Of a DNA stretch of 14,720 nt, positions 1 through 14,100 are shown piece by piece. The stretch's first letter is position 1, and each line of letters begins with the position of its first letter. The DNA comes from a virus (lineage: Duplodnaviria; Heunggongvirae; Uroviricota; Caudoviricetes): the IMG/VR virus record IMGVR_UViG_2711768072_000014; one strand, given 5' to 3'. Below the pieces are notes generated by a model, which worked only from the letters and a program-made list of their open reading frames with translations, was not told the origin of the DNA and made no database searches. Position numbers and translations under genes: made by a program.

Positions 1-1218
1 ATGAACAAACTGAGCGACACATTGCTAAGGAAACTTCATGGTAAGCCAGCGGAGAAAAACACGTTTTATAGTGATGGCGGAAACCTGAGCGTGAAATATT
101 TAACATCAGGGAAATTGACCTGGTATTTCACATACAGGGCCGGAACGGGAAGGGAGACACGACCCGAACGCATTAAGCTGGGAAGTTATCCTGATCTGAG
201 CCTGAAAGCAGCCAGGGAAAAAGCCGCACAGTGTCGCACATGGCTGGCTGAGGGGAAAAATCCACGTCATGAGATGAATTACACCGTACAGGAAGCGTTA
301 AAGCCCGTAACGGTTGGCGATGCGCTCACCTACTGGCTTGAGTATTACGTAAAGGAAAACCGCGTGGATTATATCGCCCTGAAAAGGCGACTTAATAATC
401 ACGTAATACAGCAGATTGGTGCTATGCCGCTGGATAAATGCGAGCTACGGCACTGGCTGGCCTGTTTTGACCAGGTGGCAAAGCGAACGCCTGTTACTGC
501 CGGATTCGTGCTACAGGCGTGCAAACAGGCGCTTAAGTTCTGCCGTAGGCGGCGCTATGCAATCAGCAACGTTCTGGACGATCTGAACGTGGCGGACGTT
601 GGGAAAAAACCGGATATAAGCGAACGTGTCTTAAGTAACAAAGAACTTGGCGAATTATTGCAGGCACTGGACAAAAAAATATTTTCCCCTTACTACGTCG
701 CGTTAATCCGCCTCCTGATTGTCTTCGGAGCCAGGACGGTAGAACTGAGGCTATCGGAGATCGGGGAGTGGGATTTTACGGAAATGCTATGGACCGTTCC
801 GAAGGAGCACAGCAAAACGAAGGTCGCAATATTCCGGCCCATACCGGAAGCGATCCTGCCGTTCGTCACGCAGCTGGTGGAGCAGAACAGGCACACGGGC
901 TTATTGCTGGGGGAAGCGAAACAGGAGGCCAGCGTATCGCAGTATGGAAGATTAGCGCACAGGAGGCTTAATCATCCTCACTGGTCACTGCATGACATCC
1001 GGCGCACCTTTACAACCATGCTGAACGATTTAGGCGTTGATCCGCATGTCGTGGAGCAGCTTACAGGTCATCAGATGCCAGGAATGCAGCGAGTTTATAA
1101 TCATTCCCGTTATCTGGATGCTAAACGCAATGCGCTGGATATGTGGACGGAGCGGTTAGGGATACTGGCGGGAACACATGAAAACGTAACCACGCTACCA
1201 GTAGCCAGAAGAAAATAA
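1..1218 (+). CDS. int: Tyrosine site-specific integrase, P4-like (N-terminal arm-binding domain plus C-terminal catalytic domain)
   Basis: 405-aa ORF. N-terminus FYSDGGNLSVKY...WYFTYR resembles the arm-type DNA-binding domain of P4-family integrases. C-terminus HDIRRTF...LTGHQ...RVYNHSRY carries the R/H/R/Y catalytic signature of tyrosine recombinases. Confidence 0.9.
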   Translation: MNKLSDTLLRKLHGKPAEKNTFYSDGGNLSVKYLTSGKLTWYFTYRAGTGRETRPERIKLGSYPDLSLKAAREKAAQCRTWLAEGKNPRHEMNYTVQEALKPVTVGDALTYWLEYYVKENRVDYIALKRRLNNHVIQQIGAMPLDKCELRHWLACFDQVAKRTPVTAGFVLQACKQALKFCRRRRYAISNVLDDLNVADVGKKPDISERVLSNKELGELLQALDKKIFSPYYVALIRLLIVFGARTVELRLSEIGEWDFTEMLWTVPKEHSKTKVAIFRPIPEAILPFVTQLVEQNRHTGLLLGEAKQEASVSQYGRLAHRRLNHPHWSLHDIRRTFTTMLNDLGVDPHVVEQLTGHQMPGMQRVYNHSRYLDAKRNALDMWTERLGILAGTHENVTTLPVARRK

Positions 1219-1235
1219 TTTTTTTCGTGTTTTTT

Positions 1236-1251
1236 CAGTATGCGCATACTG
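1236..1251. repeat. 16-bp perfect palindrome CAGTATGCGCATACTG just after the integrase stop, followed by ACAA-rich short repeats (to about 1310)
   Basis: Sequence is its own reverse complement. Downstream run ACAACATGCAACAATGAGCAACAATGCGGAACAACTACGAACAA contains CAACAATG twice. Lies in the int-alpA intergenic region. Confidence 0.5.
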
Positions 1252-1592
1252 GATATGCGAACAGATACAACATGCAACAATGAGCAACAATGCGGAACAA
1301 CTACGAACAAGAGGCGAAAAAGTGTACGGATTTATAAGTGGCTGATTTTTAATGTGTTACTGGTTTTTTATACACTAGCGAATCACTCTTTAAATAGCGA
1401 GAAAAAAGGCATGAAACAATATTTTATGCCTTTGTATTAACATGAATTTAAATGATTTTATCCTGATTATTCCTGTTTCTGTAAACCATACGACCTCAAC
1501 ATTTGCCAACTCTGAATCATCCTGACACAATCAGACACATCCCAACGCAATAGAACACGAAATAACTCTTTAAGAAACGAAAGGGGGCAATA

Positions 1593-1781
1593 GTGTTAAG
1601 CACTGATCGGTTTATACGTGAAAAAGAATGCGAAAAGCTAACAGGCCTTAGCCGCTCATGCCGCTACCGCCTGGAAAAGGCCGGACAATTCCCATCACGT
1701 CGTAAACTTGGCGGTCGTTCCGTTGGCTGGTCTTTATCCGAGGTTCTGGCCTGGAAGGATAGCTGCAAGGCAGTTCATTAA
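1593..1781 (+). CDS. alpA: AlpA-family transcriptional regulator / excisionase-like small DNA-binding protein
   Basis: 62-aa ORF with GTG start at 1593 preceded by AGGGGG Shine-Dalgarno. Motif LTGLSRSCRYRLEKAGQFP...KLGGRSVGW matches the AlpA/MerR-type helix-turn-helix signature (LTGLSRSTIYRL..G.FP...LGGRSVRW). Confidence 0.85.
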   Translation: MLSTDRFIREKECEKLTGLSRSCRYRLEKAGQFPSRRKLGGRSVGWSLSEVLAWKDSCKAVH

Positions 1782-1927
1782 TCACGCTGGCGGCACACAG
1801 CCGCCACACATCAATCATCTGAACACAGAGCTATAACCATGAAGATTGAATATACGCCAGAACGTGGGCGGGGATTCGTTCGCCCTGGTGAGACTGGAAA
1901 ACCACAAAATTGGGGTTTTTCAGGCAT

Positions 1928-1955
1928 AAAAAAAGCGGCCCCGAAATGGAGCCGC
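1928..1955 (-). terminator. Putative intrinsic terminator for leftward (minus-strand) transcription
   Basis: GCGGC (1935-1939) pairs with GCCGC (1951-1955) around an 11-nt loop. On the minus strand the stem is followed by a U7 run (A-run 1928-1934 on +). Sits downstream of the minus-strand ORFs at 2051-2461. Confidence 0.35.
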
Positions 1956-2050
1956 CTTTCTGAACAGATAACCCGCTGCGCCGTTTGTGTGTGTGATCCC
2001 AAACATAAGCACGGGGATGATAGCCGCTATCAGGCTGGTGGGCAATGCAA

Positions 2051-2239
2051 TCAGTCTGGTTCAGTTCGTTGCCATACCTGCAATGAGCGCTTTTCCCTGT
2101 ACTCTTTAAGGAATTGCTCAAGGGCAAAAGCACATGGCGCGAATCTTTCTGATTCATGTTCTATCTTTCTGCGCCGTCTTTTCCGTGCCGGTGATAATGT
2201 TTTGGTCAATTCTTTATCGGTCATTGTGTTGTCCTGCAT
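2051..2239 (-). CDS. Hypothetical small basic protein (62 aa), possibly co-transcribed with the RHH gene
   Basis: ORF in the track. Very basic stretch (ARKRRRRK). Lies 42 nt downstream of the RHH gene on the same strand. No clear Shine-Dalgarno. Confidence 0.35.
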   Translation of the reverse strand: MQDNTMTDKELTKTLSPARKRRRRKIEHESERFAPCAFALEQFLKEYREKRSLQVWQRTEPD

Positions 2240-2281
2240 AGCAATGCGCCGTAATACCTTACACCACGGCGCTGATGGTGA

Positions 2282-2461
2282 TTACTCTGGTTCTTTGGCC
2301 TTGCGCCGCTGGCGATATTCAACTTCTCGTTTTAATGCTGCAGTAACAAATTGCCCCGTACTTTCGCCAGGCATTTTTACCGCCTCAACATTGTTCATAA
2401 CTTCATGCGGAACCCTTGCCGCAACGGTTTGTGATTTTGCGTTTACTGCTTTTGTCGCCAT
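2282..2461 (-). CDS. Small ribbon-helix-helix-like DNA-binding protein (59 aa), candidate repressor of the divergent operon; below the size cutoff of the ORF track
   Basis: Translated by hand from the reverse complement: MATKAVNAKSQTVAARVPHEVMNNVEAVKMPGESTGQFVTAALKREVEYRQRRKAKEPE. ATG at 2461-2459 with GAGGGG Shine-Dalgarno 8 nt upstream; stop TAA at 2284-2282. The pattern of a short strand (VAARVPHEV) followed by two helices, and the basic tail, fit an RHH (Arc/CopG-like) fold. Confidence 0.6.
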   Translation of the reverse strand: MATKAVNAKSQTVAARVPHEVMNNVEAVKMPGESTGQFVTAALKREVEYRQRRKAKEPE

Positions 2462-2511
2462 GTGGTGTACCCCTCATAAAAAACAAATGCAGTATGCAGG
2501 AAAAAAAATAA

Positions 2512-2563
2512 GTGTTCAACACTTGACGTGTTTAACACCTGGGTTTAAATTGGTGTTCAACAC
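2512..2563. promoter_or_regulatory. Operator array: three copies of the 11-bp palindrome GTGTT(C/T)AACAC overlapping a candidate rightward promoter
   Basis: Copies at 2512-2522 (GTGTTCAACAC), 2528-2538 (GTGTTTAACAC) and 2553-2563 (GTGTTCAACAC). -35 TTGACG at 2523-2528 and -10 TAAATT at 2546-2551 with 17-bp spacing. Sits between the divergent RHH gene (minus) and the rightward operon starting at about 2661. Confidence 0.6.
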
Positions 2564-2660
2564 CTTGTTGGCGCAAGGTGCAGAAACGACGAAACCCGGC
2601 AGTGCGCTAACACTAACCGGGCTTCTAACCACCAACGATAGCGAAAGTATCGAGGTAGCT

Positions 2661-2864
2661 ATGAGAAATAATACCACACACCCGCAAGGGCGGGACTCGC
2701 ACAACCTGAATAAATACATCTGGCGTTTTATCGCCCTGAGCACGGCACAACCGCGCGTGATTACCATTGAGGCCACCAGCGAACAGGAAGCACGCCAGCA
2801 ATCTCCGGCTGGCTGCGTGATGGTATTCGCTGCCCGTATTCGTCAGGAGGTGCGCCATGATTAA
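2661..2864 (+). CDS. Hypothetical protein (67 aa), possible first gene of the rightward operon
   Basis: In-frame ATG at 2661 preceded by GAGGT. Stop overlaps the start of the next gene by 8 nt. It is the only part of the long 1839-2864 ORF with a plausible start downstream of the promoter. Confidence 0.4.
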   Translation: MRNNTTHPQGRDSHNLNKYIWRFIALSTAQPRVITIEATSEQEARQQSPAGCVMVFAARIRQEVRHD

Positions 2865-3069
2865 TCTGTCACTTACTGACCTTAACCGCATTCAGTTTCG
2901 TGAGAAATTCACAGGGCAGCTACTGGTCAATGTGGATAAAGGTCGCGTGGTGTGTAATTACCACTTACCAGATGAAGCAATTGTCGCCACAAGGGAATCA
3001 TTACAGGAAATCACAAAACGTGCCGGAATGATTAACACGAATATTCAGGGGATGCTTTATGCACAATAA
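2857..3069 (+). CDS. Hypothetical protein (70 aa)
   Basis: ATG at 2857 with strong AGGAGG Shine-Dalgarno 6 nt upstream. Stop overlaps the next start. Confidence 0.6.
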   Translation: MINLSLTDLNRIQFREKFTGQLLVNVDKGRVVCNYHLPDEAIVATRESLQEITKRAGMINTNIQGMLYAQ

Positions 3070-3298
3070 AACCACACCGGACGCAGCCGCCGAAGCCATC
3101 AAAACGCTGATGCACGCGCTGATTGATATTTCTGTTATCGCGGACAGGGCACATAAGCACGCCACCAGCGAAACAGAATATGCCGGTGCTTTCGTTCCTC
3201 ACTCACTGGCTGTCATGCAATTTAGTGCTGATACGGCGCTGAATGAGGCCAAAGCTATCCTGATTGCTGATTGTGAAAATGGGGGGGGTTATGCGTGA
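3059..3298 (+). CDS. Hypothetical protein (79 aa)
   Basis: ATG at 3059 overlapping the upstream stop; AGGGGA upstream. Translationally coupled arrangement. Confidence 0.55.
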   Translation: MHNKTTPDAAAEAIKTLMHALIDISVIADRAHKHATSETEYAGAFVPHSLAVMQFSADTALNEAKAILIADCENGGGYA

Positions 3299-3524
3299 TG
3301 ATCGTTTTAATTCCCTGAAACAGGAATTTTCCGGCGTTCCTGATGATGCGGCTGATGCGCTTTCGTCAATGCCAGAACTTATTAGAGCGGCTTTTTTCTT
3401 ACTTTCCACGAGAGAATATAAATCAACGGGGCTTGATGTACTGAATATCGCCGCCGATTATGCGGAATATGTGGCAGAGGCGCGTTATAGAAGAAAATTT
3501 CCTGAGGATGTAAGCCATGCGTGA
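3291..3524 (+). CDS. Hypothetical protein (77 aa from ATG 3291; the track ORF begins at 3264 with TTG)
   Basis: ATG at 3291 preceded by a G8 run acting as Shine-Dalgarno and overlapping the upstream stop (ATGCGTGATGA). Start assignment is uncertain. Confidence 0.5.
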   Translation: MRDDRFNSLKQEFSGVPDDAADALSSMPELIRAAFFLLSTREYKSTGLDVLNIAADYAEYVAEARYRRKFPEDVSHA

Positions 3525-3750
3525 TATTTACCACCAAACAATAGACCGCGCATTTCTTGCACTTTCTCACAGTGAAAACATGCTGGAAATATTGCGCATA
3601 TGGCTTGAAACACTTGGCGACAATGAACGCGACAAACAAAAATCAAGAATTGCCACGGCATTAATAACGCTTCTTGAGCCTGTAATAATGGAACTGCAAG
3701 AAATAGATCTATTGCACGACAGATATAAAGAACAGCACACCGGAGAATAA
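3517..3750 (+). CDS. Hypothetical protein (77 aa)
   Basis: ATG at 3517 overlapping the upstream stop; GAGGA 8 nt upstream. Confidence 0.55.
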   Translation: MRDIYHQTIDRAFLALSHSENMLEILRIWLETLGDNERDKQKSRIATALITLLEPVIMELQEIDLLHDRYKEQHTGE

Positions 3751-3755
3751 AAATA

Positions 3756-4055
3756 ATGAAACTTAAATATTCTGGCTTAACTGCCAGTGGCAACACTCAC
3801 CCTAAATTTACGCGCGGTGATATTTACCGCGACCAGTACGGCGGCACGGTAATGATTAAGGGCGTGGCGGGACGGTGCGTAACTTACCGCCGTGAAGGTT
3901 ACGAATATGATTGCGTGATGCCTGTTTATCAGTTCCGGCGTGATTTTTCTCTGGTACAGACCGCGCCGCATAACGTGCCCACCAGCAACGCCAGGGCACG
4001 GGCAAACATCCAGAAGCTGAAAACCATGATTAACGGATTCAGGGGCAAGAAATGA
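3756..4055 (+). CDS. Hypothetical protein (99 aa)
   Basis: ATG at 3756 with GGAGA upstream. Stop overlaps the start of the replication gene (ATGA). Confidence 0.6.
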   Translation: MKLKYSGLTASGNTHPKFTRGDIYRDQYGGTVMIKGVAGRCVTYRREGYEYDCVMPVYQFRRDFSLVQTAPHNVPTSNARARANIQKLKTMINGFRGKK

Positions 4056-5449
4056 AAAGCGCACCGAACTTAAAAAAACAGCCTTACGACAAGATGACCG
4101 AAGTCATCATTTTTGCGGGTAGTGATGCGTGGGCACATGCGAAACAGTGGCAGGAACAGGACGGGCGACTGGCTGGCGATAATGTGCCTCCCATTGTGCT
4201 GGCTGATGATCAACTGGATGAACTGGCAGACCTGAGAATCATCGACGAGGGGCGCTATTGTGTCCGGCTGTACAAGGCAGGCCACATCAGGCCATCAAAT
4301 ATTAATGCCATTGCGCACAAGCTGGCGGCGGCGGGCGTAACTGATGCGAATTATTACCCCGAAGGGATACACAGCCAGAAGCGGGAGAACTGGCGCGAAT
4401 ATCTGGAACGGGAGCGGGGGAAAAAGCCAGGGGAAGAACACCACCAGCGAAAAACCACGCTACCGATGAGCGTTGGATCTGCCGGATACGACACGCAATT
4501 AGATTACGTGGTAAAGGGGATTATTCCGGCATCGTCGCTATGCAGCATATACGGGGCAAGCGGTTCCTATAAATCATTCCTTGCGGGTTCGTGGGCGTGT
4601 CACGTTTCCACGGGCCGCCAGTGGGGAGGCCGCAGGGTGGCGCATGGCGCTGTTCTCTATGTGGTTGGTGAAGGCGGTATCGGCGTTCCGCGTCGTGTAA
4701 AAGCCTGGGAGGTTGTGCACGGTGAGCAGGTGAAAAATCTGTATCTGGTAAACCGTCCAGTTTTTCCGGCTGTCCCGCTTGATGTTGATGAACTGGTTAT
4801 CGCTGCCCGTCAGGTGGAGCGGGAAACGGGTAAACCTGTACGCATGATTATTCTTGATACTCTGGCGCGTTGCTTTGGTGGCAATGATGAAAATGATTCC
4901 CGTGATATGGGGGCGTTTATCCGTGGGTGTGACGAGCTTAAACGGCGCACAGGGGCCACGGTGCTGGTGGTTCACCATTCCGGCAAGGATGAGACGAAAG
5001 GCGCGCGCGGTTCCAGTGCATTTCGTGCTTCGCTGGATGCTGAATACCGGATACGCAGGGAGGACGCAGGAAGCGAAGCGCTGGTTATCTCATGCACCAA
5101 AATGAAGGACGCGGAGGAACTCAAAGAGGCTGCCTATGATTTGCGGGTGGTGGAGCTTTTTACCGACGCTGACGGGGAGTTAATCACGTCGCTGGTGGTG
5201 GTGGATAAGCCGCGCCCTCCCGTTGAACTGGAGCGCATCGAGGAGGCAGGCAACAAGACGGAAAACCATACCGCACTATGGGGGTGCATCCGTTCACGCA
5301 CACAGAACGGCGACAAGTGCACGATCCCGCTGTTACGTGATGACATGAAACGGCTTGGGTATGACGTGAAAAATATGCGGCGATGGTTAGCCAAACTGGA
5401 AAAAGACGCCGTGATTTACATTGATGGTGATGATGTAGGACCACTGTAA
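4052..5449 (+). CDS. Replication protein with RecA-fold ATPase domain (AAA_25 / RepA-DnaB-like helicase type; PICI Pri-Rep-like)
   Basis: 465-aa ORF. Walker A-like YGASGSYKSF, Walker B-like MIILDTL and LVVHHSGKDETKG are arranged as in RecA-fold replicative ATPases of plasmids and satellites. Immediately followed by an iteron cluster. Confidence 0.8.
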   Translation: MKSAPNLKKQPYDKMTEVIIFAGSDAWAHAKQWQEQDGRLAGDNVPPIVLADDQLDELADLRIIDEGRYCVRLYKAGHIRPSNINAIAHKLAAAGVTDANYYPEGIHSQKRENWREYLERERGKKPGEEHHQRKTTLPMSVGSAGYDTQLDYVVKGIIPASSLCSIYGASGSYKSFLAGSWACHVSTGRQWGGRRVAHGAVLYVVGEGGIGVPRRVKAWEVVHGEQVKNLYLVNRPVFPAVPLDVDELVIAARQVERETGKPVRMIILDTLARCFGGNDENDSRDMGAFIRGCDELKRRTGATVLVVHHSGKDETKGARGSSAFRASLDAEYRIRREDAGSEALVISCTKMKDAEELKEAAYDLRVVELFTDADGELITSLVVVDKPRPPVELERIEEAGNKTENHTALWGCIRSRTQNGDKCTIPLLRDDMKRLGYDVKNMRRWLAKLEKDAVIYIDGDDVGPL

Positions 5450-5450
5450 A

Positions 5451-5648
5451 AAGTGAGTAGCAAAAGTGAGTAATGGTGAGGTTTTTACAAAATATTAACA
5501 CGATTGCTCACTTTCTCACCTGTATACATGCTCAAAAGTGAGGAGTAAAAAAATGCTTATGAAACATGCATATATAAAACACGAAAATCTCAAGCGAGAC
5601 GAAGTGAGACGCGTTAAAAAGTGAGGCGTAAAAGTGAGCGCGAGTGAG
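5451..5648. repeat. Putative replication origin: iterons of (A)AGTGAG in direct and inverted orientation flanking AT-rich spacers
   Basis: AAGTGAG at 5451, 5464, 5536, 5602, 5619 and 5632; GGTGAG at 5475; GAGTGAG at 5642; inverted copies CTCACTT and TCTCACC at 5507-5520. AT-rich stretches at 5481-5500 and 5545-5590. Directly downstream of the replication ATPase gene. Confidence 0.6.
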
Positions 5649-5660
5649 GAGATAACCAAA

Positions 5661-5903
5661 ATGCGCAGAGACAGAACAGCGCCAAAATATAAAGCGTTAG
5701 ACATGACAGAGCACGCTTTAAAGGTGGCAATCAGAACGATAGACCGCCACGCGGGGGAAGGATACGCGAAGGAGCATCCCGAACTGATAAGCGCATTCAT
5801 GACAACAGCGGCGGCAAACTTTGCCACGCTGACAGAACGGGAGATTGCCGAAGCGGAACAGGTAACAACCATCAACGTTAAAACCGGAGAGGTGGAATCA
5901 TGA
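5661..5903 (+). CDS. Hypothetical protein (80 aa from ATG 5661; alternative GTG start at 5634)
   Basis: ORF in the track. GAGGA upstream of ATG 5661. The 5' end overlaps the iteron region, so the start is uncertain. Confidence 0.5.
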   Translation: MRRDRTAPKYKALDMTEHALKVAIRTIDRHAGEGYAKEHPELISAFMTTAAANFATLTEREIAEAEQVTTINVKTGEVES

Positions 5904-6205
5904 GCGAACCAAAATTTGGTGAAAAATTTTACAAGCACAACGGACGGATCACGATTCTGCAAATAAGCGCAGCTACACCAGGCTGGTGGGTTGAAACAGA
6001 CGAAGGATCCTCACCCGTGGCATCATGGGCGCTTTGTGTGCTTAGTTACCCTGACCGCGATGTGTATCAGGATATTCTGCCTGTGATATCCACTGACAAA
6101 GGCATGAAACCCGTAGACATCAAAAACATGGGGTTTCAGTGCGTAATGCTCACTGAAAAAATGATGGAAGAGATGAAAAAGAACAATGCCGGATCGCTTC
6201 ACTGA
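5900..6205 (+). CDS. Hypothetical protein (101 aa)
   Basis: ATG at 5900 with GGAGAGG Shine-Dalgarno; overlaps the upstream stop. Confidence 0.55.
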   Translation: MSEPKFGEKFYKHNGRITILQISAATPGWWVETDEGSSPVASWALCVLSYPDRDVYQDILPVISTDKGMKPVDIKNMGFQCVMLTEKMMEEMKKNNAGSLH

Positions 6206-6214
6206 GGTGGCAAT

Positions 6215-6625
6215 ATGACAGCACAAATTGCAGCTTACGGGCGGCTGGTGGACGACCCGCTGGTAAAACAGAGCAGCAAGGGCACACCGATGACTCTGGC
6301 GCGTATGGCGGTATCGTTGCCATGCAGCCAGGCACATGACGGACAGGCGACGTTATGGTTATCGGTTATCGCATTTGGCAAACAGGCCGATTTCCTGGCT
6401 AAACATCAAAAAGGCGATGTTGCCAGCGTATCCGGCACGATGCAGGTAAGCCAGTGGACCGGACAGAACGGGGAAACGCGGCGGGGGTATCAGGTTATTG
6501 CAGACAGCGTAATCAGTGCCCGCGCGGCACGTCCAGGCGGGAACAGACGCAAAACCACAGGCACACAGGGTAATCAGCCACCAGCGGGAGGCGATGACCC
6601 TTACGGTGACGGTATTCCGTTCTGA
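6215..6625 (+). CDS. ssb: Single-stranded DNA-binding protein (short SSB with acidic C-terminal tail)
   Basis: 136 aa. Core WLSVIAFGKQADFLAKHQKGD...QWTGQNGETRRGYQV parallels the E. coli SSB OB-fold (WHRVVLFGKLAE...KWTDQSGQDRY). The C-terminus DDPYGDGIPF matches the SSB protein-interaction tail (DDDIPF). GAGGTGG Shine-Dalgarno. Confidence 0.8.
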   Translation: MTAQIAAYGRLVDDPLVKQSSKGTPMTLARMAVSLPCSQAHDGQATLWLSVIAFGKQADFLAKHQKGDVASVSGTMQVSQWTGQNGETRRGYQVIADSVISARAARPGGNRRKTTGTQGNQPPAGGDDPYGDGIPF

Positions 6626-6635
6626 GGGGGTGACG

Positions 6636-6884
6636 ATGGTACATGACCGCACAGCGGAGGAACTCGAGGCAAAAGGCTTTTACCGGAGGGCGTCGGCGCG
6701 ATGGGGTGAAGTCATGCAACTGGTGGAGACAGACAAGGAACGGCATCAGGTTACGATGCGACGGCTGGAATGTTCCAGGAAGGCACAGAGGCCACCGGAG
6801 CCGCCAACGGAGAACTACGCAGACCTGAGAAATGCAGTAAATCGCACTTACGCAGACATGGGGCTGAGCAAATTAGCAGAGTAG
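6636..6884 (+). CDS. Small putative transcriptional regulator, PerC-like (tentative family assignment)
   Basis: 82 aa from ATG 6636, with GGGGG upstream just after the SSB stop. Motif AEELEAKGFYRRASARWGEVM resembles the LEAKG-x-RRAA-x-RW motif I recall for PerC/Pch-family activators; this is a recollection, not a search. The track ORF starting at 6516 overlaps ssb and is taken as an unlikely extension. Confidence 0.5.
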   Translation: MVHDRTAEELEAKGFYRRASARWGEVMQLVETDKERHQVTMRRLECSRKAQRPPEPPTENYADLRNAVNRTYADMGLSKLAE

Positions 6885-6907
6885 GAATATCAGAACCACA
6901 CCACGCA

Positions 6908-6938
6908 GCCGGAGCAATCCGGCTTTTTGTTATTTTTT
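6908..6938 (+). terminator. Intrinsic terminator after the PerC-like gene
   Basis: GCCGGA (6908-6913) pairs with TCCGGC (6918-6923) around a GCAA loop, followed by TTTTTGTTATTTTTT. Confidence 0.6.
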
Positions 6939-7150
6939 GTAAATTATTTGTTCGTGGTTGTTCCACGTTGTTCACTGAGCGGATCGGCATATTTTACCCG
7001 AACTGAATCATGATTATTCTCGCCCGTGGTGCCAGGACGCTGGGGCCACTTTCCTGCCTGTTAATGTGCCCGCCAATATTCATTACCAGGCGGGAAAACG
7101 ATCGGTGCGATTACTGATTTCCTTATGAAAAACGGTTGAGTGTTTGCCGC

Positions 7151-7189
7151 GTCCTGGAGTTCCTTACTTAACCCCAGGACTTTTTTTTT
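7151..7189 (+). terminator. Terminator-like hairpin plus T9 run abutting the capsid gene start codon (candidate attenuator)
   Basis: GTCCTGG (7151-7157) pairs with CCAGGAC (7174-7180); T9 at 7181-7189; ATG at 7190. No Shine-Dalgarno between the hairpin and the start. Confidence 0.4.
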
Positions 7190-8347
7190 ATGCAGAGAAT
7201 AATCGAATTACGCCAGCAGAAAACCGCCATTAAAAATCAGATGCGCGACATGCTGGAGAACGCTGAAAAAGAAAACCGCAGTCTTAACGATGCTGAGGGC
7301 GCAAAATTTGACGAATTACGCGCTAAAGCTGAATCCCTCGATAAAGACATTTCCCGCCTTGAAGCCATTGCAGACGAAGAGCGCAGCAAGCCAGGTAAAA
7401 GCAGCCAGACCACTGACCCCGCAGAACTACGCAGCTACATTCTGACAGGTGAAACCCGCGCATTAAGTACAGGCGTTCCCGCTGATGGTGGTTATACCGT
7501 TATCCCCGAACTGAACACCGAAATCATGCGAATGCTGGCGGATGAATCCACCATGCGCCGCATCTGTACCGTGAAGAAAATCAGCAGCAACGAGTTTAAG
7601 CAGCTTGTTTCCGCTGGCGGTGCGACCGTTAACCACGGTGAAGAGGGTAAGGCACGCGAACAGACCAGCACCCCGCAGATTAACGAGGTGAGCATTAAGC
7701 TGTATCCGGTCTATGCGTACCCGCGCACCACGCAGGAAATCGTGGATTTTTCCGATGTGGACATCCTTTCATGGCTGACGGGCGAGATTGGCGACACCTT
7801 CACGGAAACCGAAGAAAGCGATCTGGTTGTGGGCGACGGTGACAAAAAAGCAAAAGGTTTTTTATCCGTACCCCGTGCAGAGAAGAACGACAAAGAGCGT
7901 GATTTTGGTACGTTGCAGGTAATTAAACCTTCCGAATCTCTGGCGTGGACATCTGCGGACCCGCTGATCGACCTGAAATTTGCATTACGTAAAAAATACC
8001 GCAAAAACGCGGTCTGGGTGGTTAACTCCACGACGGCCGCAAAACTTCAGAAGGTGAAGAACGCGAACGGTGATTACATCTGGCGCGACCGTTTACAGGC
8101 GGGTGATCCTGATACGTTGCTGGGCCTTCCGGTCGAATATCTGGAGTTTATGCCTGATAACGTTATTGCCCTGGGTGACTTCAAACGCGGTTACTACATT
8201 GTTGATCACGAAACAGGTGTTCGCACCAGACCGGACAACCTCACAGAGCCGGGCTTCATCAAAATTTTCACGCAGAAATATTTAGGCGGTGGCGTGGTGG
8301 ATTCGAACGCGATCAAGATTCTGGAACTGCCACAGGACGACGATTAA
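7190..8347 (+). CDS. Major capsid protein, HK97 fold, with N-terminal coiled-coil scaffolding (delta-like) domain
   Basis: 385 aa. The first ~100 residues are charged and helical (ELRQQKTAIKNQMRDMLENAEKE...DKDISRLEAIADEE), as in HK97-type delta domains. The remainder has a typical HK97-family capsid composition. No separate scaffold gene is present. Followed by protease and portal. Confidence 0.88.
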   Translation: MQRIIELRQQKTAIKNQMRDMLENAEKENRSLNDAEGAKFDELRAKAESLDKDISRLEAIADEERSKPGKSSQTTDPAELRSYILTGETRALSTGVPADGGYTVIPELNTEIMRMLADESTMRRICTVKKISSNEFKQLVSAGGATVNHGEEGKAREQTSTPQINEVSIKLYPVYAYPRTTQEIVDFSDVDILSWLTGEIGDTFTETEESDLVVGDGDKKAKGFLSVPRAEKNDKERDFGTLQVIKPSESLAWTSADPLIDLKFALRKKYRKNAVWVVNSTTAAKLQKVKNANGDYIWRDRLQAGDPDTLLGLPVEYLEFMPDNVIALGDFKRGYYIVDHETGVRTRPDNLTEPGFIKIFTQKYLGGGVVDSNAIKILELPQDDD

Positions 8348-8357
8348 CAGCATACAG

Positions 8358-8386
8358 AAGGGGCTTAAAAGCCCCTTTAGTGTTTT
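8358..8386 (+). terminator. Terminator-like hairpin between capsid and protease genes (possible partial terminator setting capsid:protease stoichiometry)
   Basis: AAGGGGC (8358-8364) pairs with GCCCCTT (8371-8377) around a TTAAAA loop, followed by a T-rich tail TAGTGTTTT directly before ATG 8387. Confidence 0.4.
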
Positions 8387-8959
8387 ATGGGTGAAAAAAT
8401 TATGAAGAGTATGGAAATCCGGTCATCGGAAATCACTACCAGCGGAGCCGGTACGCTGACGGGCTACGTTGTTCGCTGGGATAAGCTTTCAGAACTGCTA
8501 TGGGGGGAGTTTTACGAAAAATTCCAGCGGGGGGCGTTTACTGAGTGGCTTGCGGCGGATAATGACGTTCGCGGCCTGTATGAGCATGACCACAGCATGT
8601 TACTGGGGCGCACCCGTTCCGGCACGCTGAAACTGGAAGAGGACGAAACAGGGTTACGCTTTGAACTGACCCCACCGGATACCAGTACAGGGCGCGACGT
8701 TATCGAACTGGTTAAACGAGGTGATATATCCGGCATGAGCTTTGGCTTTCGTTCCCGTAAGGATGTATGGGATACCACAACAGATCCATGCGTGCGCACC
8801 GTGCTGGTGGCGGAACTGTACGAAATTACCGTTACATCCGTACCGGCTTACCCTGATTCCGGCGTGGAGCTGGCCCGCCGCTCCCTGTACGAGCAGCACC
8901 CCGAAAAAATGCCGCGTGCGGATAATCGCCGCTGGTGGGCGGATTTAGCGGGGGTGTGA
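8387..8959 (+). CDS. Prohead maturation protease, HK97 family (S78-type)
   Basis: 190 aa. Motifs GYVVRWD, YEHDHS, GMSFGF and VPAYPDS parallel HK97 gp4-type prohead proteases (GYAAVFD, WAHD, GLSIGF, FPAN). Start may instead be ATG 8402 or 8411. Confidence 0.85.
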   Translation: MGEKIMKSMEIRSSEITTSGAGTLTGYVVRWDKLSELLWGEFYEKFQRGAFTEWLAADNDVRGLYEHDHSMLLGRTRSGTLKLEEDETGLRFELTPPDTSTGRDVIELVKRGDISGMSFGFRSRKDVWDTTTDPCVRTVLVAELYEITVTSVPAYPDSGVELARRSLYEQHPEKMPRADNRRWWADLAGV

Positions 8960-8960
8960 T

Positions 8961-10172
8961 ATGTGGCCTTTCAGAAGAAAAAAAGAGCAGCGCAGCATGA
9001 CGCTTGATGAGTTTATGGCGCTGGCCGGCACATCGAACACGGGGGCTGGTGAGTACGTATCATCGGGGACAGCGGAATCACTGCCCGCCGTCATGAACGC
9101 CGTCACGGTCATCTCTGAGGCGGTGGCTACCATGCCGTGTTACCTGTACCTGGTACGCAATGAGAAGGGGAAGGAGGCCCGAGAGTGGCTTGATTCTCAT
9201 CCGGTCGATCACATCCTCAACGAGCGCCCGAACGCATGGCAAACCCCCTACCAGTTTAAGCGAATGATGATCCGCCACTGCCTGTTAAACGGTAATGCTT
9301 ACGCGGTGATTCAGTGGGGGCGTGATGGTTTTCCGGCGGCTTTACATCCTTACCCGCCGCAGTCGGTGAACGTGGAGCAGACAGGTGAGCATAACTGGCG
9401 CTATTGCATCACTGACGCCTACACCGGAAACACCCGCAACTATTTACCGTGGGAGGTTCTCCACCTTCGTTACTCCACGGATGACGGTTTTATGGGGCGC
9501 TCACCTGTAACCATCTGCCGCGAATCGCTGGGGCTTGGGCTGGCCCAACAACGCCACGGCGCGAGCGTGATGCGTGATGGCATGATGGCGGCAGGGGTTA
9601 TCACGTCAGGCGAATGGCTGGACGGCGTGAAGGGCAAACAGGCATTAGCCGCACTGGAACGCTACAAAGGGGCCAGAAACGCCGGAAAAACGCCCATCCT
9701 TGAAGGGGGTATGAGCTATCAGCAGCTGGGCATGAGTAATCAGGATGCTGAATGGCTGGCCTCCCGTCGCTTCACCATTGAAGACATCGCCCGAATGTTC
9801 AACGTCTCGCCGATTTTTTTGCAGGAATACAGCAACAGCACCTACAGCAATTTCAGCGAGGCAAGCCGCGCATTTCTCACCATGACGATGCGCCCGTGGC
9901 TGGCGAACTTTGAGCAGCAGATAAAAAACGCCCTGCTGGTGGCCTCACCTGTACCTGGTATCCGGTATCAGGTGGAGTTTGACAGCGCGGACCTGTTACG
10001 GGCCACTCCTGGCGAACGCTTTGCCACCTATGAACGCGGCATCAAATCCGGCGTTATGTGCCCGAACGAAGCCCGCGAACGTGAAGGGCTGTCCCCGCGT
10101 GATGGTGGTGATGAGTTCAGCCAGGCATGGAAACAGGAAGTAAAAATCAGCGAGGGAGAAAAACCGGAATGA
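8961..10172 (+). CDS. Portal protein, HK97 family
   Basis: 403-aa ORF. ATG overlaps the protease stop; GGGGGT Shine-Dalgarno. Size, position between protease and adaptor, and composition fit HK97-type portals. Confidence 0.85.
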   Translation: MWPFRRKKEQRSMTLDEFMALAGTSNTGAGEYVSSGTAESLPAVMNAVTVISEAVATMPCYLYLVRNEKGKEAREWLDSHPVDHILNERPNAWQTPYQFKRMMIRHCLLNGNAYAVIQWGRDGFPAALHPYPPQSVNVEQTGEHNWRYCITDAYTGNTRNYLPWEVLHLRYSTDDGFMGRSPVTICRESLGLGLAQQRHGASVMRDGMMAAGVITSGEWLDGVKGKQALAALERYKGARNAGKTPILEGGMSYQQLGMSNQDAEWLASRRFTIEDIARMFNVSPIFLQEYSNSTYSNFSEASRAFLTMTMRPWLANFEQQIKNALLVASPVPGIRYQVEFDSADLLRATPGERFATYERGIKSGVMCPNEAREREGLSPRDGGDEFSQAWKQEVKISEGEKPE

Positions 10173-10507
10173 ACATAGGGCGACTGCGTGACAGGGTAAC
10201 GATTCAGACCCTGAAACAGACCAGGGATATAACCGGCGAAATACTCGAAACGTGGGTGGACGGTCACACACTCTGGGCAAGCGTGAACATGATCAGCAGC
10301 AAGGAGGCCATTTCATCGGGTGCAGAACTGGCGACTGGAACGGTAAGGATATGGATACGCTACAGGAAGGACATCAACGCCACCAGCCGGATAAAGGTCA
10401 ATACGGGGCCGCTGGCGGGGCGTGTACTGAATATCATCGGGCAGCCGCTGCCGGATGCCGCCAGGACACGCCTTGAAATTCTTTGTCGTGAGGGCGCGGA
10501 AAAATGA
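10169..10507 (+). CDS. Head closure / head-tail joining protein
   Basis: 112 aa from ATG 10169, which overlaps the portal stop (ATGA). N-terminal RLRDRVTIQ...W..VWASV pattern is typical of phage head-tail joining proteins. The track ORF starts at 10127 inside the portal gene. Confidence 0.7.
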   Translation: MNIGRLRDRVTIQTLKQTRDITGEILETWVDGHTLWASVNMISSKEAISSGAELATGTVRIWIRYRKDINATSRIKVNTGPLAGRVLNIIGQPLPDAARTRLEILCREGAEK

Positions 10508-10800
10508 CAGAAGAACTTATCACCCTGGAAGAAGTGAAACTCCATTGCCGCATCGATGGCGACGAGGAAGACCAGTTAATCAGCGGATACATCGCCGCAT
10601 CGCTTGAGGCGTGCCAGATACACATAGGCAGGCGCTTTGATGACGGGCTGGAGTTCACGCCAGCCATAAAGATTGGCTGCATGATGTTTATCGCTCACCT
10701 GTATGAAAATCGCCAGATTGTCGCGGATAACGCAAAAACACGCGTACCCATGACGATTGGTGCACTCTGGACGGCTTACCGTGATGTGGGGGTGTACTGA
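10504..10800 (+). CDS. Head-tail connector protein, gp6-like
   Basis: 98 aa. N-terminal LITLEEVKLHCRIDGDEEDQLISGYIAAS resembles gp6-like connector proteins (L.LEE.K.HLRID...D.LI). ATG overlaps the upstream stop. Confidence 0.7.
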   Translation: MTEELITLEEVKLHCRIDGDEEDQLISGYIAASLEACQIHIGRRFDDGLEFTPAIKIGCMMFIAHLYENRQIVADNAKTRVPMTIGALWTAYRDVGVY

Positions 10801-11240
10801 TGCCGTGGCAACCATTAAGACGATGCACAGAACCAGGCTGTAACAGGCGCGTGAAGTCCGGCAAGTGTGAGGAGCACAGGCGGGCGGCATGGCGTGCAGA
10901 GGATGCCAGACGAGGACACCGCCGCGCGCGTGGGTACTCCAGACAGTGGGACAAATACCGCGCCATGTATCTGAGTAAAAACCCGTTATGCGTGCGATGC
11001 CTTGAGAAGGGGATATATACGCCCGCCGTGGTGGTGGATCACATTATCCCGATTAATGGCGGTGATGATGTTCTCTTCTGGCCCGAATGGAACCATCAGC
11101 CATTGTGCCAGGCGTGCCATAACCAGAAAACGAAATGGCTTGATCCGGCAACAAAAAGCAAGCGTGCCGCAGGTGGATTTCGTGAAGAGGAAGAACGGGC
11201 CGCTAACCGCAATAACTGGATGTATGACGCTGATGAATGA
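10800..11240 (+). CDS. HNH endonuclease (packaging-associated)
   Basis: 146 aa. CxxC...CxxC zinc-binding cysteines and VDHIIPINGG...NHQPLCQACHNQKT match the HNH motif (DH..P....N.Q.LC..CH..K). Located immediately upstream of terS as in HK97-like cos phages. Confidence 0.9.
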   Translation: MPWQPLRRCTEPGCNRRVKSGKCEEHRRAAWRAEDARRGHRRARGYSRQWDKYRAMYLSKNPLCVRCLEKGIYTPAVVVDHIIPINGGDDVLFWPEWNHQPLCQACHNQKTKWLDPATKSKRAAGGFREEEERAANRNNWMYDADE

Positions 11241-11406
11241 GCGGGAACAAAACCGCCTTATCCGTGGACTTATAAGGCAGCGTGACGCATGGAAGACACA
11301 GGAAACAGGGCATAAAGATAAAGCGTCAGGACGCGCAGAACGCATCACAGCGAAGCGATTAACCGACCGTGACTGCGAGGTTATGGAATGTTTCCGCAAT
11401 CGCTGA

Positions 11407-11529
11407 TGAGGCTGTATGACGGGGTGGGGGGCGTTTTCAGGACAAACCCGACCCCGCCGGGCACCGACCGCCTCCTCAAATTTTTATGCACGGGAATTTT
11501 TTGAAAAATAATCTGGCGAAAAAATAAGC
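11407..11529. other. Candidate cos / packaging-recognition region between HNH and terS
   Basis: 123-bp intergenic region with G/C-rich runs (GGGGTGGGGGGCG at 11421-11433; CCCGACCCCGCCGGGCACCGACCGCC at 11447-11472) followed by an AT-rich stretch. This is the position where HK97-like cos phages carry cos. Confidence 0.35.
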
Positions 11530-11886
11530 ATGGCAAGACCACCGAAAGCCCCCGCCTACCTGGATGATATCGCCGTGAAGCAGTGGCGGGAAAAATCGCG
11601 GCAGCTTGCGGAACGGGGAGACCTTACCCCCGCCGACTGGAGTAATCTGGAACTGTATTGTGTCAACTACTCCATTTACCGGAAAGCCGTTGCAGACCTT
11701 GCGGCGCGCGGGTTCAGCATTGTTAACAGTCAGGGCGGCGAGAGCAGAAACCCCGCATTAAGCGCAAAATCCGACGCTGAAAGAGTGATGATAAAAATGG
11801 CCTCTTTGCTCGGTTTTGACCCGATAAGCCGCCGTAAAAATCCACCGGAAACAGAAGAAGAGGACGAGCTTGACCGCCTGGAATAA
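11530..11886 (+). CDS. terS: Terminase small subunit, P27 family
   Basis: 118 aa. Pattern W...LAERGDLTPADWSNLELYCVNYSIYRKA...LGFDPISRRK is typical of P27-family small terminases. Directly precedes and overlaps the large terminase. Confidence 0.85.
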   Translation: MARPPKAPAYLDDIAVKQWREKSRQLAERGDLTPADWSNLELYCVNYSIYRKAVADLAARGFSIVNSQGGESRNPALSAKSDAERVMIKMASLLGFDPISRRKNPPETEEEDELDRLE

Positions 11887-13531
11887 GTACGCAGAAGACG
11901 TAAAAACGGGCAAAATTCCGGCCTGTAAACGGCTGAAACAGGCCGTTAAACGGTACTTTTCGGACCTTGAAAGCCCCCTTTACACGTTCGATCGTGAGGT
12001 TGTGGAGCGGTTTATTGCCTTTTCCAGGGTGTGCCCGCACGTAAAAGGCGCAATGCGCGGTAGCCCCATTGAGCTGGAGCCGTGGCAGCAGTTCGCCTTT
12101 GCGTGCATCCTCGGCTTTAAGGTTAAGGCCACCGGACGGCGCAAATACACGAGCGCCTTTATCGAAGTGCCGCGCAAAAATGCGAAATCCACGACCGCCG
12201 CGATTCTGGCTAACTGGTTTTTGATTATGGAGAACGGTCAGCAGGATATCTACACCGCAGCGGTGAGCCGTGACCAGGCGCGGATCGTCTTTGATGATGC
12301 GCGTCAGATGTGCCTTTTATCCCGACCGTTACGCAGGCGGGTGAATATTCAGGCGCATAAGGTGATACACCCGAAAAGCAACAGCCTGTTAAAGCCGCTG
12401 GCAGCAAAAGCGGCAACCATTGAAGGTACAAACCCGAGTCTTGCCATTGTGGATGAATATCACCTGCACCCTGACAACGGGGTTTATTCCGCGCTTGAAC
12501 TGGGAATGGGGGCGCGTCCGGAGGGGCTGTTATTTGCCATCACCACATCGGGGAGCAACGTTGTTTCAGCCTGTAAACAACACTACGACTATTGCTGCCA
12601 GATACTGGATGGTGAAGAGGTGAACGAATCCATGTTCGTGCTGATTTACGAGCTGGATGATGAAAGCGAGGTTGACGATCCGGCGATGTGGATAAAGGCG
12701 AATCCCAATATCGATGTTTCCGTCGATCGTGAAAAACTGGCCTCAACCATCCAGAAAGCGCGGGGAATACCGTCGCAGTGGGTGGAGATGATGACAAAGC
12801 GATTTAATATCTGGTGCCAGGGGGCTACCCCGTGGATGGGTAACGGCGCATGGGCTGAGTGTGCCGGAACGTTCACGGAGGAAGATTTACACGGCCAGGA
12901 GTGTTACGCGGGGCTGGATTTATCATCAACCAGCGATATTTCCAGCGTATGCTATGCCTTTCCGGTCGGTAAAACCATTATGCTGATTTCCCGTCATTAT
13001 CTGCCGGAGTTCCAGCTACAGAACCCCGCCAATAAAAACCGCGCTGTCTATCGTCAGTGGGCTAAAGCGGGCTGGATACGCACAACGCCTGGCGACTGCA
13101 TTGATTACGACCGGATCAGAGATGACATCATGCAGGACGCGGAGAAATTTCATATCAGGCTGGTGGGCTTTGATACGTGGAACGCCACGCATCTCAGAAC
13201 GCAATTACAGGGGGCAGGTTTTGAGGTGGAGCCGTTCCCGCAAACCTACCTCAGATTCAGTCCGGCGGCGAAATCGTTCGAAGTTTTTGTTAACCGCAGG
13301 GTGATTGTGCATCGTGGCGATCCGGTGTTGTCCTGGTCGATGAGTAACGTCGTGATGCAGAGTGACGCGAACGCCAATATCAAGCCGAACAAGAAAAAAT
13401 CACCGAACAAGATAGACCCGAGCGTAGCGGCGCTGATGGCGTTTGGTACATTCCAGGCAGAGCATGAGGATTTTGCTTTTGATATAAGCGACAGCCACCG
13501 CCAGAAACTGGAAGAATTTAGCGGGGTGTAA
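11870..13531 (+). CDS. terL: Terminase large subunit (ATPase plus nuclease domains)
   Basis: 553 aa. Walker A-like VPRKNAKSTTAA in the N-terminal ATPase region, acidic motifs (IVDEYH) and a C-terminal nuclease-like region. TTG start at 11870 preceded by GAGGA, overlapping terS. Confidence 0.9.
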   Translation: MTAWNKYAEDVKTGKIPACKRLKQAVKRYFSDLESPLYTFDREVVERFIAFSRVCPHVKGAMRGSPIELEPWQQFAFACILGFKVKATGRRKYTSAFIEVPRKNAKSTTAAILANWFLIMENGQQDIYTAAVSRDQARIVFDDARQMCLLSRPLRRRVNIQAHKVIHPKSNSLLKPLAAKAATIEGTNPSLAIVDEYHLHPDNGVYSALELGMGARPEGLLFAITTSGSNVVSACKQHYDYCCQILDGEEVNESMFVLIYELDDESEVDDPAMWIKANPNIDVSVDREKLASTIQKARGIPSQWVEMMTKRFNIWCQGATPWMGNGAWAECAGTFTEEDLHGQECYAGLDLSSTSDISSVCYAFPVGKTIMLISRHYLPEFQLQNPANKNRAVYRQWAKAGWIRTTPGDCIDYDRIRDDIMQDAEKFHIRLVGFDTWNATHLRTQLQGAGFEVEPFPQTYLRFSPAAKSFEVFVNRRVIVHRGDPVLSWSMSNVVMQSDANANIKPNKKKSPNKIDPSVAALMAFGTFQAEHEDFAFDISDSHRQKLEEFSGV

Positions 13532-13544
13532 TGAGGTCAGCAGC

Positions 13545-13826
13545 ATGACAGAAGCCGAAATACTGCGATTAATCCGCCGCGTCTCTGGAATCAGCCAGCA
13601 GCATGACGAACAGGCCACGCAGCCGGACAGCGTGACCGCCGAAAATTATGCGCGTGTTGTTGCTGAGGTGATGCGCCGTGATGGTATCCAGCTTAATGAT
13701 GTGGATATGCGCAACATACGGATCCGCGTTCTTGAAATGCTGGCCTACCGTCGCCGCGTGCAGACGTACAGGGAAAAAGCAAAAATTACGTACCACTGGA
13801 AGAAGCCGGAGCGGTTACGGCGGTAA
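13545..13826 (+). CDS. Hypothetical protein (93 aa), last gene before the noncoding right end
   Basis: ORF in the track. GAGG 9 nt upstream of ATG. No recognisable motif. Confidence 0.5.
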   Translation: MTEAEILRLIRRVSGISQQHDEQATQPDSVTAENYARVVAEVMRRDGIQLNDVDMRNIRIRVLEMLAYRRRVQTYREKAKITYHWKKPERLRR

Positions 13827-13831
13827 CTGGT

Positions 13832-13859
13832 TGAACTTAAAGCAAAGCGCAAAATTGCG
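13832..13859. repeat. 28-bp perfect direct repeat, copy 1 (TGAACTTAAAGCAAAGCGCAAAATTGCG)
   Basis: Identical to 14051-14078; start-to-start distance 219 bp. Contains the internal inverted repeat GCGCAA..TTGCG. Confidence 0.9.
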
Positions 13860-13872
13860 TTGGCTGGTGGGT

Positions 13873-13892
13873 GAGTTGCAGATCTGCAACTC
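13873..13892. repeat. 20-bp perfect palindrome GAGTTGCAGATCTGCAACTC
   Basis: Sequence is its own reverse complement. Shares the TGCA-N4-TGCA core with the palindrome at 14101-14124. Confidence 0.9.
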
Positions 13893-14050
13893 GACCATGA
13901 AATTACGGAAAATACCCGTAGTTTGGGTAGTAAGAGTAACACCCAGATTTTGGGGCTTACTCGCGATACCCAAATAAAGGGTATCGGTGGAAGAAATATC
14001 GTTTCTCATATGTGAGTACCGAGGGCGGAATTCCGCCTTCGGTTACTCGC

Positions 14051-14078: not shown

Positions 14079-14100
14079 CTGATTACTGGTTGGAATTGTT

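Follow-up and report, generated by a model that had tools for sequence, protein, structure and literature searches.

Gene content and boundaries

We analyzed a 14,720-nucleotide stretch of DNA, hereafter the window (IMG/VR virus record IMGVR_UViG_2711768072_000014), which holds a tail-less element inserted in the tqsA gene of Escherichia coli. A first-pass annotation made from the sequence alone had read this element as a capsid-forming phage-inducible chromosomal island (cf-PICI). Gene families were assigned by Pfam, NCBIfam and PHROG profile searches. The + strand of the window forms a single rightward gene array, in which the 11 cf-PICI core genes (int, alpA, rep, major capsid, S78 protease, portal, head-closure/adaptor, connector, HNH, TerS and TerL) are all present and full length (11/11). 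Profile searches of each protein, as the first-pass annotation had suggested, confirmed the families of all the genes it had named, each on the + strand and with strong Pfam, NCBIfam or PHROG support. Its list lacked four genes that we add here: an Icd-like gene (2661-2864), a DUF4222 gene (3756-4055, +; PF13973, 2e-23), a gene for a single-strand DNA-binding protein (SSB; 6215-6625, +; PF00436, 9e-16) and one for a PerC-family regulator (6636-6884, +; PF06069, 3e-35).

The element encodes its own capsid and its own packaging enzymes, and these were compared with EcCIEDL933, the prototype from E. coli O157:H7 EDL933 on which the cf-PICI family was defined experimentally (Alqurainy et al., 2022/2023; He et al., 2025). 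The EcCIEDL933 sequence was taken as the EDL933 chromosome locus between roxA and phoQ. According to our analysis, the head and packaging module of the window (6906-13834) shares 97.8% DNA identity with that of EcCIEDL933, and the head and packaging proteins, like AlpA, have lengths identical to their EcCIEDL933 counterparts. The module (all genes on the + strand) opens with an HK97-fold major capsid protein (7190-8347; PF05065, 2e-61; 99.0% identical to that of EcCIEDL933). This protein matches 381 of the 385 residues of PDB 9GYI, the cryo-electron microscopy model of the EcCIEDL933 T=4 capsid (He et al., 2025); the next-best solved structures are the HK97-family capsids of RcGTA. It is followed by a prohead serine protease of the S78 family (8387-8959; PF04586, 6e-48; 97.4%), the portal (8961-10172; PF04860, 3e-90; 99.3%), the head closure/head-tail adaptor or head completion protein (10169-10507; PF05521 and TIGR01563; 94.4%) and a gp6-like head-tail connector (10504-10800; PF05135 and TIGR01560; 100%). 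The packaging genes are an HNH endonuclease that acts as packaging cofactor (10800-11240; PF01844; 99.3%), a P27-family small terminase (11530-11886; PF05119 and TIGR01558; 100%) and a large terminase with ATPase and nuclease domains (11870-13531; PF03354, TerL_ATPase, and PF20441, TerL_nuclease; 99.5%). Between HNH and terS lies a 60-amino-acid (aa) protein (11224-11406, +; phrog_3173), 98.3% identical to the small EcCIEDL933 ORF (open reading frame) at the same position. We assume that it may be the EcCIEDL933 "gene 1792", whose mutation severely reduces transfer.

The gap between HNH and terS (11407-11529) differs from that of EcCIEDL933 by 1 nt. It contains an imperfect GC-rich palindrome, GGGGTGGGG...CCCGACCCC, centred near 11443. 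This palindrome (around 11420-11460) is conserved across relatives, and we propose it as the putative cos. The linear ends of a cf-PICI-like record, vB_KppS-Ant (see below), are a pointer to the same site rather than a mapping of it: the record begins 22 nt upstream of its terS, and its end falls on the position homologous to window 11443. The cos model of classical PICIs was rejected because the lambda-type cosN (GGGCGGCGACCT, <=2 mismatches) is absent from the window and from related islands.

The integrase gene (1-1218, +; Pfam Arm-DNA-bind_3, 1e-18, and Phage_integrase, 1e-16) encodes a tqsA-specific allele of the tyrosine integrase, of 405 aa when read from the window ATG; RefSeq relatives place the start 12 nt upstream of base 1 (409 aa). 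As the window begins exactly at this ATG, attL lies outside it. We therefore read the left junction in four contigs carrying the identical 405-aa integrase, as well as in L146, a fifth contig with a tqsA-inserted relative. The core of attL was found upstream of int, where the first-pass annotation had suggested looking for it, 196 nt before the integrase ATG and right behind the 3' portion of tqsA and pntB (5/5 contigs). The identical integrase is recorded in 1,623 index blocks and adjoins a truncated tqsA in the four contigs read. On the right, comparison with the empty K-12 site and with the attL of relatives places the attR core, ATAACAGCA, at 14584-14592. This 9-bp core is duplicated at both junctions when the empty K-12 site is set against occupied sites, and the terminal 137 bases of the window agree fully (100%) with K-12 tqsA. 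Positions 14593-14720 (- strand, 100% K-12 identity) are thus chromosomal flank outside the element, a 5' fragment of tqsA whose ATG forms the last three bases of the window. The window spans exactly from the integrase ATG (1-3) to the opposite-strand tqsA ATG (14718-14720).

With attR at 14584-14592 and attL 196 nt upstream of the integrase, the element measures 14,788 bp. The right end had been placed at 13860, about 730 bp short of the true one, and the element had been described as smaller than 14 kb; the corrected length still falls within the size range of such satellites (about 10-16 kb). Tail or lysis genes just outside the window would have spoken against the first-pass reading. Fragments of tqsA flank both ends instead, and since host genes lie directly outside the att cores there is no room for such genes on either side. 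A tRNA scan of the window found none, so a tRNA attachment site is not used. Table S1 of Fillol-Salom et al. (2018) gives ATAACAGCA in tqsA as the site where the PICIs EcCI042 and EcCIK1516 attach, and the element is thus inserted at a PICI attachment site that is not used by prophages. Just inside attR, a TGTTC-rich box followed by two tandem copies of GGTGTAGTCA (14488-14509) makes up what we take, from the sequence, for the P'-arm repeats of attP (14437-14509). The tandem copies are probable Int arm-type sites, and the repeats are mirrored upstream of int in relatives.

The left end has the backbone of a PICI, with int, an AlpA-type regulator and a pri-rep gene, all rightward. The int-alpA intergenic region (1219-1592) is AT-rich (31-36% GC), bears GAACA/TGTTC-type repeats and contains promoter-like sites at 1437-1464 and 1503-1531; it is presumed to be the helper-responsive alpA promoter region. 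AlpA, a regulator/excisionase, is encoded at 1593-1781 (+; PF05930, 5e-18; phrog_2790) and is 98.4% identical to the AlpA of EcCIEDL933, in which mutation of alpA abolishes induction and transfer. A 66-aa ORF at 1240-1440 does not encode AlpA. A TGTTC/GTTCC-rich box of ~33 nt occurs at window positions 1449-1481, 6940-6972 and 14437-14469 and at 5889-5923 of locus L001. These four positions correspond to the int-alpA gap, the region upstream of the capsid operon, the attR arm and the attL arm, and the box may be a common binding site of AlpA or Int.

The replication gene (4052-5449, +) encodes a RepA-family replicative helicase of 465 aa (AAA_25, 5e-44), in which no primase domain was detected. 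The iteron origin reported for this element is real. All seven exact AAGTGAG copies of the window lie within 5451-5638, directly after the rep stop codon, against 1.2 copies expected (0/200 shuffles reached 7). They form two clusters flanking an AT-rich core (about 5545-5600) in an origin that extends over 5447-5660, and an equivalent layout was proven functional in EcCICFT073. Only residues 1-122 of Rep are common to other PICI replication proteins, at 68-74% identity. These ~122 N-terminal residues (4052-4420) are shared with two otherwise unrelated proteins, the DUF927 type of EDL933 and the DNA-primase-family type of SCPM-O-B-9504 (L005), which suggests a common N-terminal domain that can be swapped among PICI replication proteins.

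The SatelliteFinder cfPICI model has 11 core components and forbids tail and holin profiles. Tail, baseplate, fibre, holin and lysin families were all absent from Pfam and PHROG searches of every + strand gene and the longer minus-strand ORFs, a search that did not include SatelliteFinder's 96 forbidden profiles. All + strand genes are accounted for, and the reported lack of tail and lysis genes is borne out. No PHROG match was obtained for the nine minus-strand ORFs of >100 aa inside + strand genes nor for a 108-aa minus-strand ORF at 1831-2157, and PADLOC detected no defence system among the 10 unassigned or partly assigned ORFs.

Relationship to EcCIEDL933 and other islands

EcCIEDL933 undergoes alpA-dependent induction by HK106 and HK446, and mutagenesis, electron microscopy and cryo-electron microscopy have established that its small capsids consist of its own proteins and contain satellite DNA alone. 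None of its packaging genes is dispensable, the helper supplies tails only, and tail specificity is determined by the adaptor and the connector. The window element follows the same order of core modules, and SSB, PerC and DUF4222 are present in both. It differs from the prototype in its integration site (tqsA vs the roxA(ycfD)-phoQ intergenic region), in the small genes that separate alpA from the capsid operon, including those between alpA and rep, and in Rep, a 465-aa RepA/AAA_25 helicase vs a 710-aa DUF927 protein that shares only the first ~122 residues (68%). The Icd-like proteins are only 51% identical, the palindrome stack of the right arm has 3 repeat boxes vs 7, and the element is slightly shorter (14.8 kb vs 15.4-15.5 kb).

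The backbone int, alpA, icd-like, DUF4222, rep with iterons and perC is also that of the classical PICIs EcCICFT073, EcCI042 and EcCIK1516 (Fillol-Salom et al., 2018, 2019), with the same origin layout, last gene and palindromic right arm as in the window, and the attB core in tqsA is the same in the window, EcCI042 and EcCIK1516. The window element has a portal, an adaptor, a connector, a protease and TerL; all five are missing from the classical PICIs, which rely on helper capsids and, via Rpp and a lambda-like cosN, on helper TerS/TerL.

Among 5,426 complete E. coli genomes, 178 carry a copy with at least 80% coverage, and the loci inspected were always a tail-less island. The best whole-window match in this set reaches 96% identity over 96% coverage, and the exact gene combination of the window occurs in none of its genomes. 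Outside the set, assembly GCA_049861655.1 is 100% identical over 1870-14720 and a second assembly is 99.98% identical. Three relatives match different parts of the window. The element of B1_2 (NZ_CP074764.1) occupies the same tqsA attachment site, has the same packaging module and encodes an integrase 99.3% identical to that of the window, compared with 91% for the integrase of EcCIEDL933. The roxA-phoQ copy of strain 25-07338 is 97% identical in DNA over 3064-13865, with a Rep 99.6% identical, and the tqsA-inserted copy of SCPM-O-B-9504 (NZ_CP144930.1) has a right arm identical to the window's. The replication proteins of other relatives are of D5_N/primase types. The window thus resembles a recombinant in which a B1_2-type left end is joined to a body of the 25-07338 type.

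In the phage collection, no record covers >13% of the element, and the matches found there are 76-78% identical. A 16.5-kb record deposited as "Escherichia phage vB_KppS-Ant" (LR881103.1, L156) encodes terS, terL, integrase, primase, capsid, protease, portal, adaptor, connector and HNH in the circular order of the window. Its terS/terL are 77% identical to the window's in DNA, and the record belongs to a different lineage. It seems that vB_KppS-Ant is a packaged cf-PICI that was entered as a phage. The gap between HNH and terS holds its linear ends, and a 765-aa ORF after its terL is annotated as a tape measure.

Scanning species-representative genomes with the capsid protein returned 12 loci. 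The nearest is a Shigella flexneri copy, and the next, 66-74% identical, are in Rosenbergiella, Citrobacter, Erwinia and Gilliamella. The S. flexneri relative (strain SFBU1023, L008, about 14263-14269) has a 91-bp deletion equivalent to window 11459-11549. Lost with it are the terS start and the far end of the putative cos region, so this is a decayed copy. Two further loci at the roxA-phoQ site (L148 and L149) carry the left arm of the window (int, alpA, 70-aa gene, AAA_25 rep, SSB and PerC) together with a lambda gpE-type capsid (PF03864) and a head-decoration gene (PF02924), not the HK97-type module. These islands may pair the shared PICI backbone with an alternative capsid cassette.

Proposed life cycle and weighing of the readings

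Taken together, the data lead us to conclude, with a probability of about 90%, that the window carries an integrated, apparently intact cf-PICI of the EcCIEDL933 lineage, sited in E. coli tqsA. The sequence itself yields nothing that contradicts this reading, and every trait of a cf-PICI that can be read from sequence was found, in support of the first-pass assignment. The family, this lineage, its attachment site and its mechanism have already been published, and the element is a natural recombinant within a known family.

In the life cycle that we propose, the window's own anatomy speaks for the integration and iteron/helicase steps and includes a complete head and cos-packaging cassette, and the other steps are modelled on the near-identity with EcCIEDL933. 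The tyrosine integrase would maintain the element in tqsA until a helper phage activates alpA, and AlpA would then bring about excision and rightward transcription. The RepA-type helicase would bind the AAGTGAG iterons beside its gene and replicate the circle with the element's SSB. Priming is presumably left to the host DnaG, since Rep has no detectable primase domain. From the late operon, capsid protein, S78 protease and portal would form small T=4 procapsids with room for about 15 kb, and HNH, TerS and TerL would cut and package the element at cos in the HNH-terS gap. The head-closure/adaptor and the connector would complete the head and dock helper siphovirus tails, and lysis would likewise be provided by the helper. 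HK106-type tails are our best guess for the window element because its connector is 100% and its adaptor 94% identical to those of EcCIEDL933. It is by homology to EcCIEDL933 that we ascribe to this element helper dependence, T=4 capsids and tail capture.

Several points qualify this reading. Functional support for the window copy comes from homology. The replication module is unlike that of EcCIEDL933, with no primase domain detected, a small accessory gene (phrog_2512) is frameshifted, and the position of cos is putative. The adaptor differs from that of the prototype at ~6% of its residues, and such changes can alter tail specificity. The element might also be a dead copy, a cf-PICI by descent that is kept in tqsA by a lesion outside the core genes (promoters, cos or ori), by the split gene or by the want of a compatible helper. 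The split gene consists of two ORFs (3059-3298, 79 aa, and 3264-3524, 86 aa) that match positions 1-76 and 72-154 of the 154 positions of phrog_2512, a single 154-aa gene interrupted by a 1-nt indel. It is intact in L142, a 99.98% identical copy with a single mismatch and a single gap relative to the window. Decay does occur in the lineage, as the 91-bp deletion of the S. flexneri relative illustrates, and EcCIEDL933 itself is not induced by any prophage of its own strain. Against this, the frameshift is the only lesion seen in the element, the 11 core ORFs are full length, the HNH-terS gap is one base off that of a functional prototype, the iterons and both att-proximal repeat sets are intact, and identical and 99.98% identical copies occur in independent assemblies. 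We regard a dead copy as unlikely, although inactivity from causes that leave no mark in the sequence is the realistic reservation to our reading.

The two other readings are much less probable. A temperate HK97-like prophage would bring tail, lysis and repressor modules, and none of these was found in or beside the element. If the element were a defective remnant of such a prophage, its tail and lysis genes having been deleted, one could understand why its head and packaging genes belong to ordinary phage families and why the capsids of RcGTA rank next after 9GYI. HK97 and HK97-like helpers such as HK106 share with it the HK97 fold, the S78 protease, the portal and HNH/TerS/TerL-dependent cos packaging. 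Compared with these phages, however, the element is without tail, lysis and lysogeny-control modules, identity in protein sequence is low, and the capsid is T=4 (as published for EcCIEDL933) vs T=7. Degraded head genes had been named as a sign of a remnant, but those of the window have the same length as in EcCIEDL933, with 94-100% protein identity. The left half is moreover a PICI backbone common to classical PICIs (int, alpA, icd-like, DUF4222, rep/iterons, SSB and perC), the element stops at a precise att core with nothing beyond, phage records match at most 13% of it at 76-78% identity, the same tail-less architecture recurs at several att sites with several rep alleles, and the prototype has been proven functional. 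A prophage remnant is thus very improbable. The last reading, a classical PICI or P4-like satellite that remodels helper capsids, would account for the integrase family, the attB (ATAACAGCA in tqsA) and the left arm, which are as in EcCI042 and EcCIK1516, and for the right arm that the window has in common with a classical PICI. We find it scarcely credible, because the element encodes portal, adaptor, connector and TerL, which are SatelliteFinder markers excluding that class, and no capsid-remodelling gene (Rpp, Ccm or Sid-like) was detected instead of them.

As a cf-PICI, the element adds little to what is known: the prototype has been published along with the family, mechanism and attachment site, and automated tools detect such elements. 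As a natural recombinant, it sets the EcCIEDL933 capsid/packaging cassette on a different integrase and on a replicon without a detectable primase domain, and so illustrates modular exchange between classical PICIs and cf-PICIs. The identity of its connector with that of the prototype, together with the 94% identical adaptor, makes for a testable prediction of tail specificity. An antisense RNA candidate, a hidden leftward cassette and a stack of palindromes recur across hundreds of islands, are annotated nowhere and may merit a separate look. Further work might be rewarded only in the case of the antisense RNA and of the palindrome stack.

Antisense features, small genes and the right arm

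Downstream of alpA, a 341-aa frame (1839-2864, +) is open in all relatives; RefSeq labels for it vary between hypothetical, "icd-like" and pseudogene. It is probably composite. Family support in this frame is confined to the last 67 codons, which form the Icd-like gene (host cell-division inhibitor-like; 2661-2864, +; NF033153, 2e-18; phrog_6196, 3e-47), the first gene of the rightward replication operon. We rejected the frame as one gene because two family-supported antisense genes lie inside it and the AT skew flips, becoming negative across 2000-2500. These two genes form a leftward cassette (2051-2461, -) that consists of a YlcI/YnfO-like gene (2282-2461, -; NF041551, 2e-16; phrog_949, 9e-22) and a 62-aa ORF (2051-2239, -; phrog_21027, 1.6e-15), and gene callers give the same two minus-strand genes in L147. 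With family-supported genes on the minus strand, an island described as unidirectional therefore contains a small leftward cassette.

Between this cassette and the icd-like gene we predict a cis-antisense small RNA (sRNA) of about 75 nt, running on the - strand from 2660 to about 2583. The candidate has two stem-loops, the second of which, with its U-rich tail, resembles a terminator, and it is fully complementary to the Shine-Dalgarno sequence and to the leader (5' untranslated region, 5' UTR) of the icd-like gene. A conserved extended -10 (TGGTATTAT) lies at 2676-2668. This extended -10 (TGGTATNAT), just upstream of the sRNA, is kept within two otherwise divergent icd-like coding sequences. 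The invariant motif GGGCTTCTAACCA[C/A]CAACG was found in at least 120 IMG/VR contigs and precedes an Icd-like ORF in 86 of 94 distinct cases.

The structure was examined by folding each sequence and by fitting a hand-specified structure to a minus-strand alignment. The minus strand was more stable in all 67 distinct variants, by 12.6 kcal/mol on average. In the 28-sequence alignment, 95.6% of cells pair and six pairs are changed on both sides (0/500 shuffles reach this). Many of the pairs are G-U and could not form on the plus strand. On these grounds (better minus-strand folding in 67/67, G-U pairs and U-rich tail), we rejected a 5' UTR structure read from the plus strand. RNAalifold on a plus-strand MAFFT alignment of the icd leader gave almost no structure, the hairpin variants being misaligned. 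The Rfam SymR model (RF01809) matches the same strand and position, with a score of 33.3 bits for the window and of 39.4 bits for the homologous site of Pseudomonas phage PS-1. As these scores do not reach the gathering threshold of 61 bits, the sRNA is SymR-like in shape and geometry and is not a member by the Rfam criterion. Rfam searches of the whole window and of sub-regions gave nothing at gathering score and no C4 or IsrK match, and the remaining hits were at chance level.

The position of the sRNA recalls c4-icd-ant of phage P1. Most E. coli PICIs and cf-PICIs would carry this RNA as the window does. If the antisense RNA is expressed, it might act as a switch that silences the island's division inhibitor and replication genes until induction, in a way analogous to P1 c4-icd-ant or to SymR/symE; this proposal, drawn from conservation and predicted folding, is tentative, and we hold it to be doubtful at present. 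A literature search on SymR/Icd in satellites returned nothing relevant. If the switch is real, the RNA may be a mechanism of repression or maintenance that, to our knowledge, is undescribed for Gram-negative PICIs. The hairpin region is also found upstream of Rha/KilA genes in a P22-like phage.

Several small genes complete the array. The segment 2857-3750 (+) holds the genes 2857-3069 and 3517-3750 on either side of the split phrog_2512 gene, with matches to phrog_340, phrog_2512 and phrog_2196 over the segment. Two small conserved genes to which no function could be assigned follow the origin (5661-6205, +; phrog_1231 and phrog_27268). Upstream of the capsid operon, the region 6907-7189 (+) starts with a terminator-like hairpin (6907-6924) and includes the TGTTC-rich repeat at 6940-6972; its regulatory role is putative. 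The last gene (13545-13826, +; phrog_1561, 1e-56) encodes a 93-aa protein of unassigned function that is also present in L007 and shared with classical PICIs.

Beyond it, the right arm (13827-14400) is non-coding, with no supported ORF, and contains about 13 short perfect palindromes (z = -9.6 vs shuffles). Its modules are shuffled, and a recurring box, GGTAACTNGNTGA / AACCCGYTGAT, marks their boundaries. Two copies of a 53-nt direct repeat, at 13821-13873 and at 14040-14092, enclose a 184-bp module, which occurs in 707 of the 5,426 E. coli genomes, where it is never annotated, and also at the right end of a classical PICI. Similar palindrome stacks are present at 15756-16200 of L004 and at 15465-15960 of L007.

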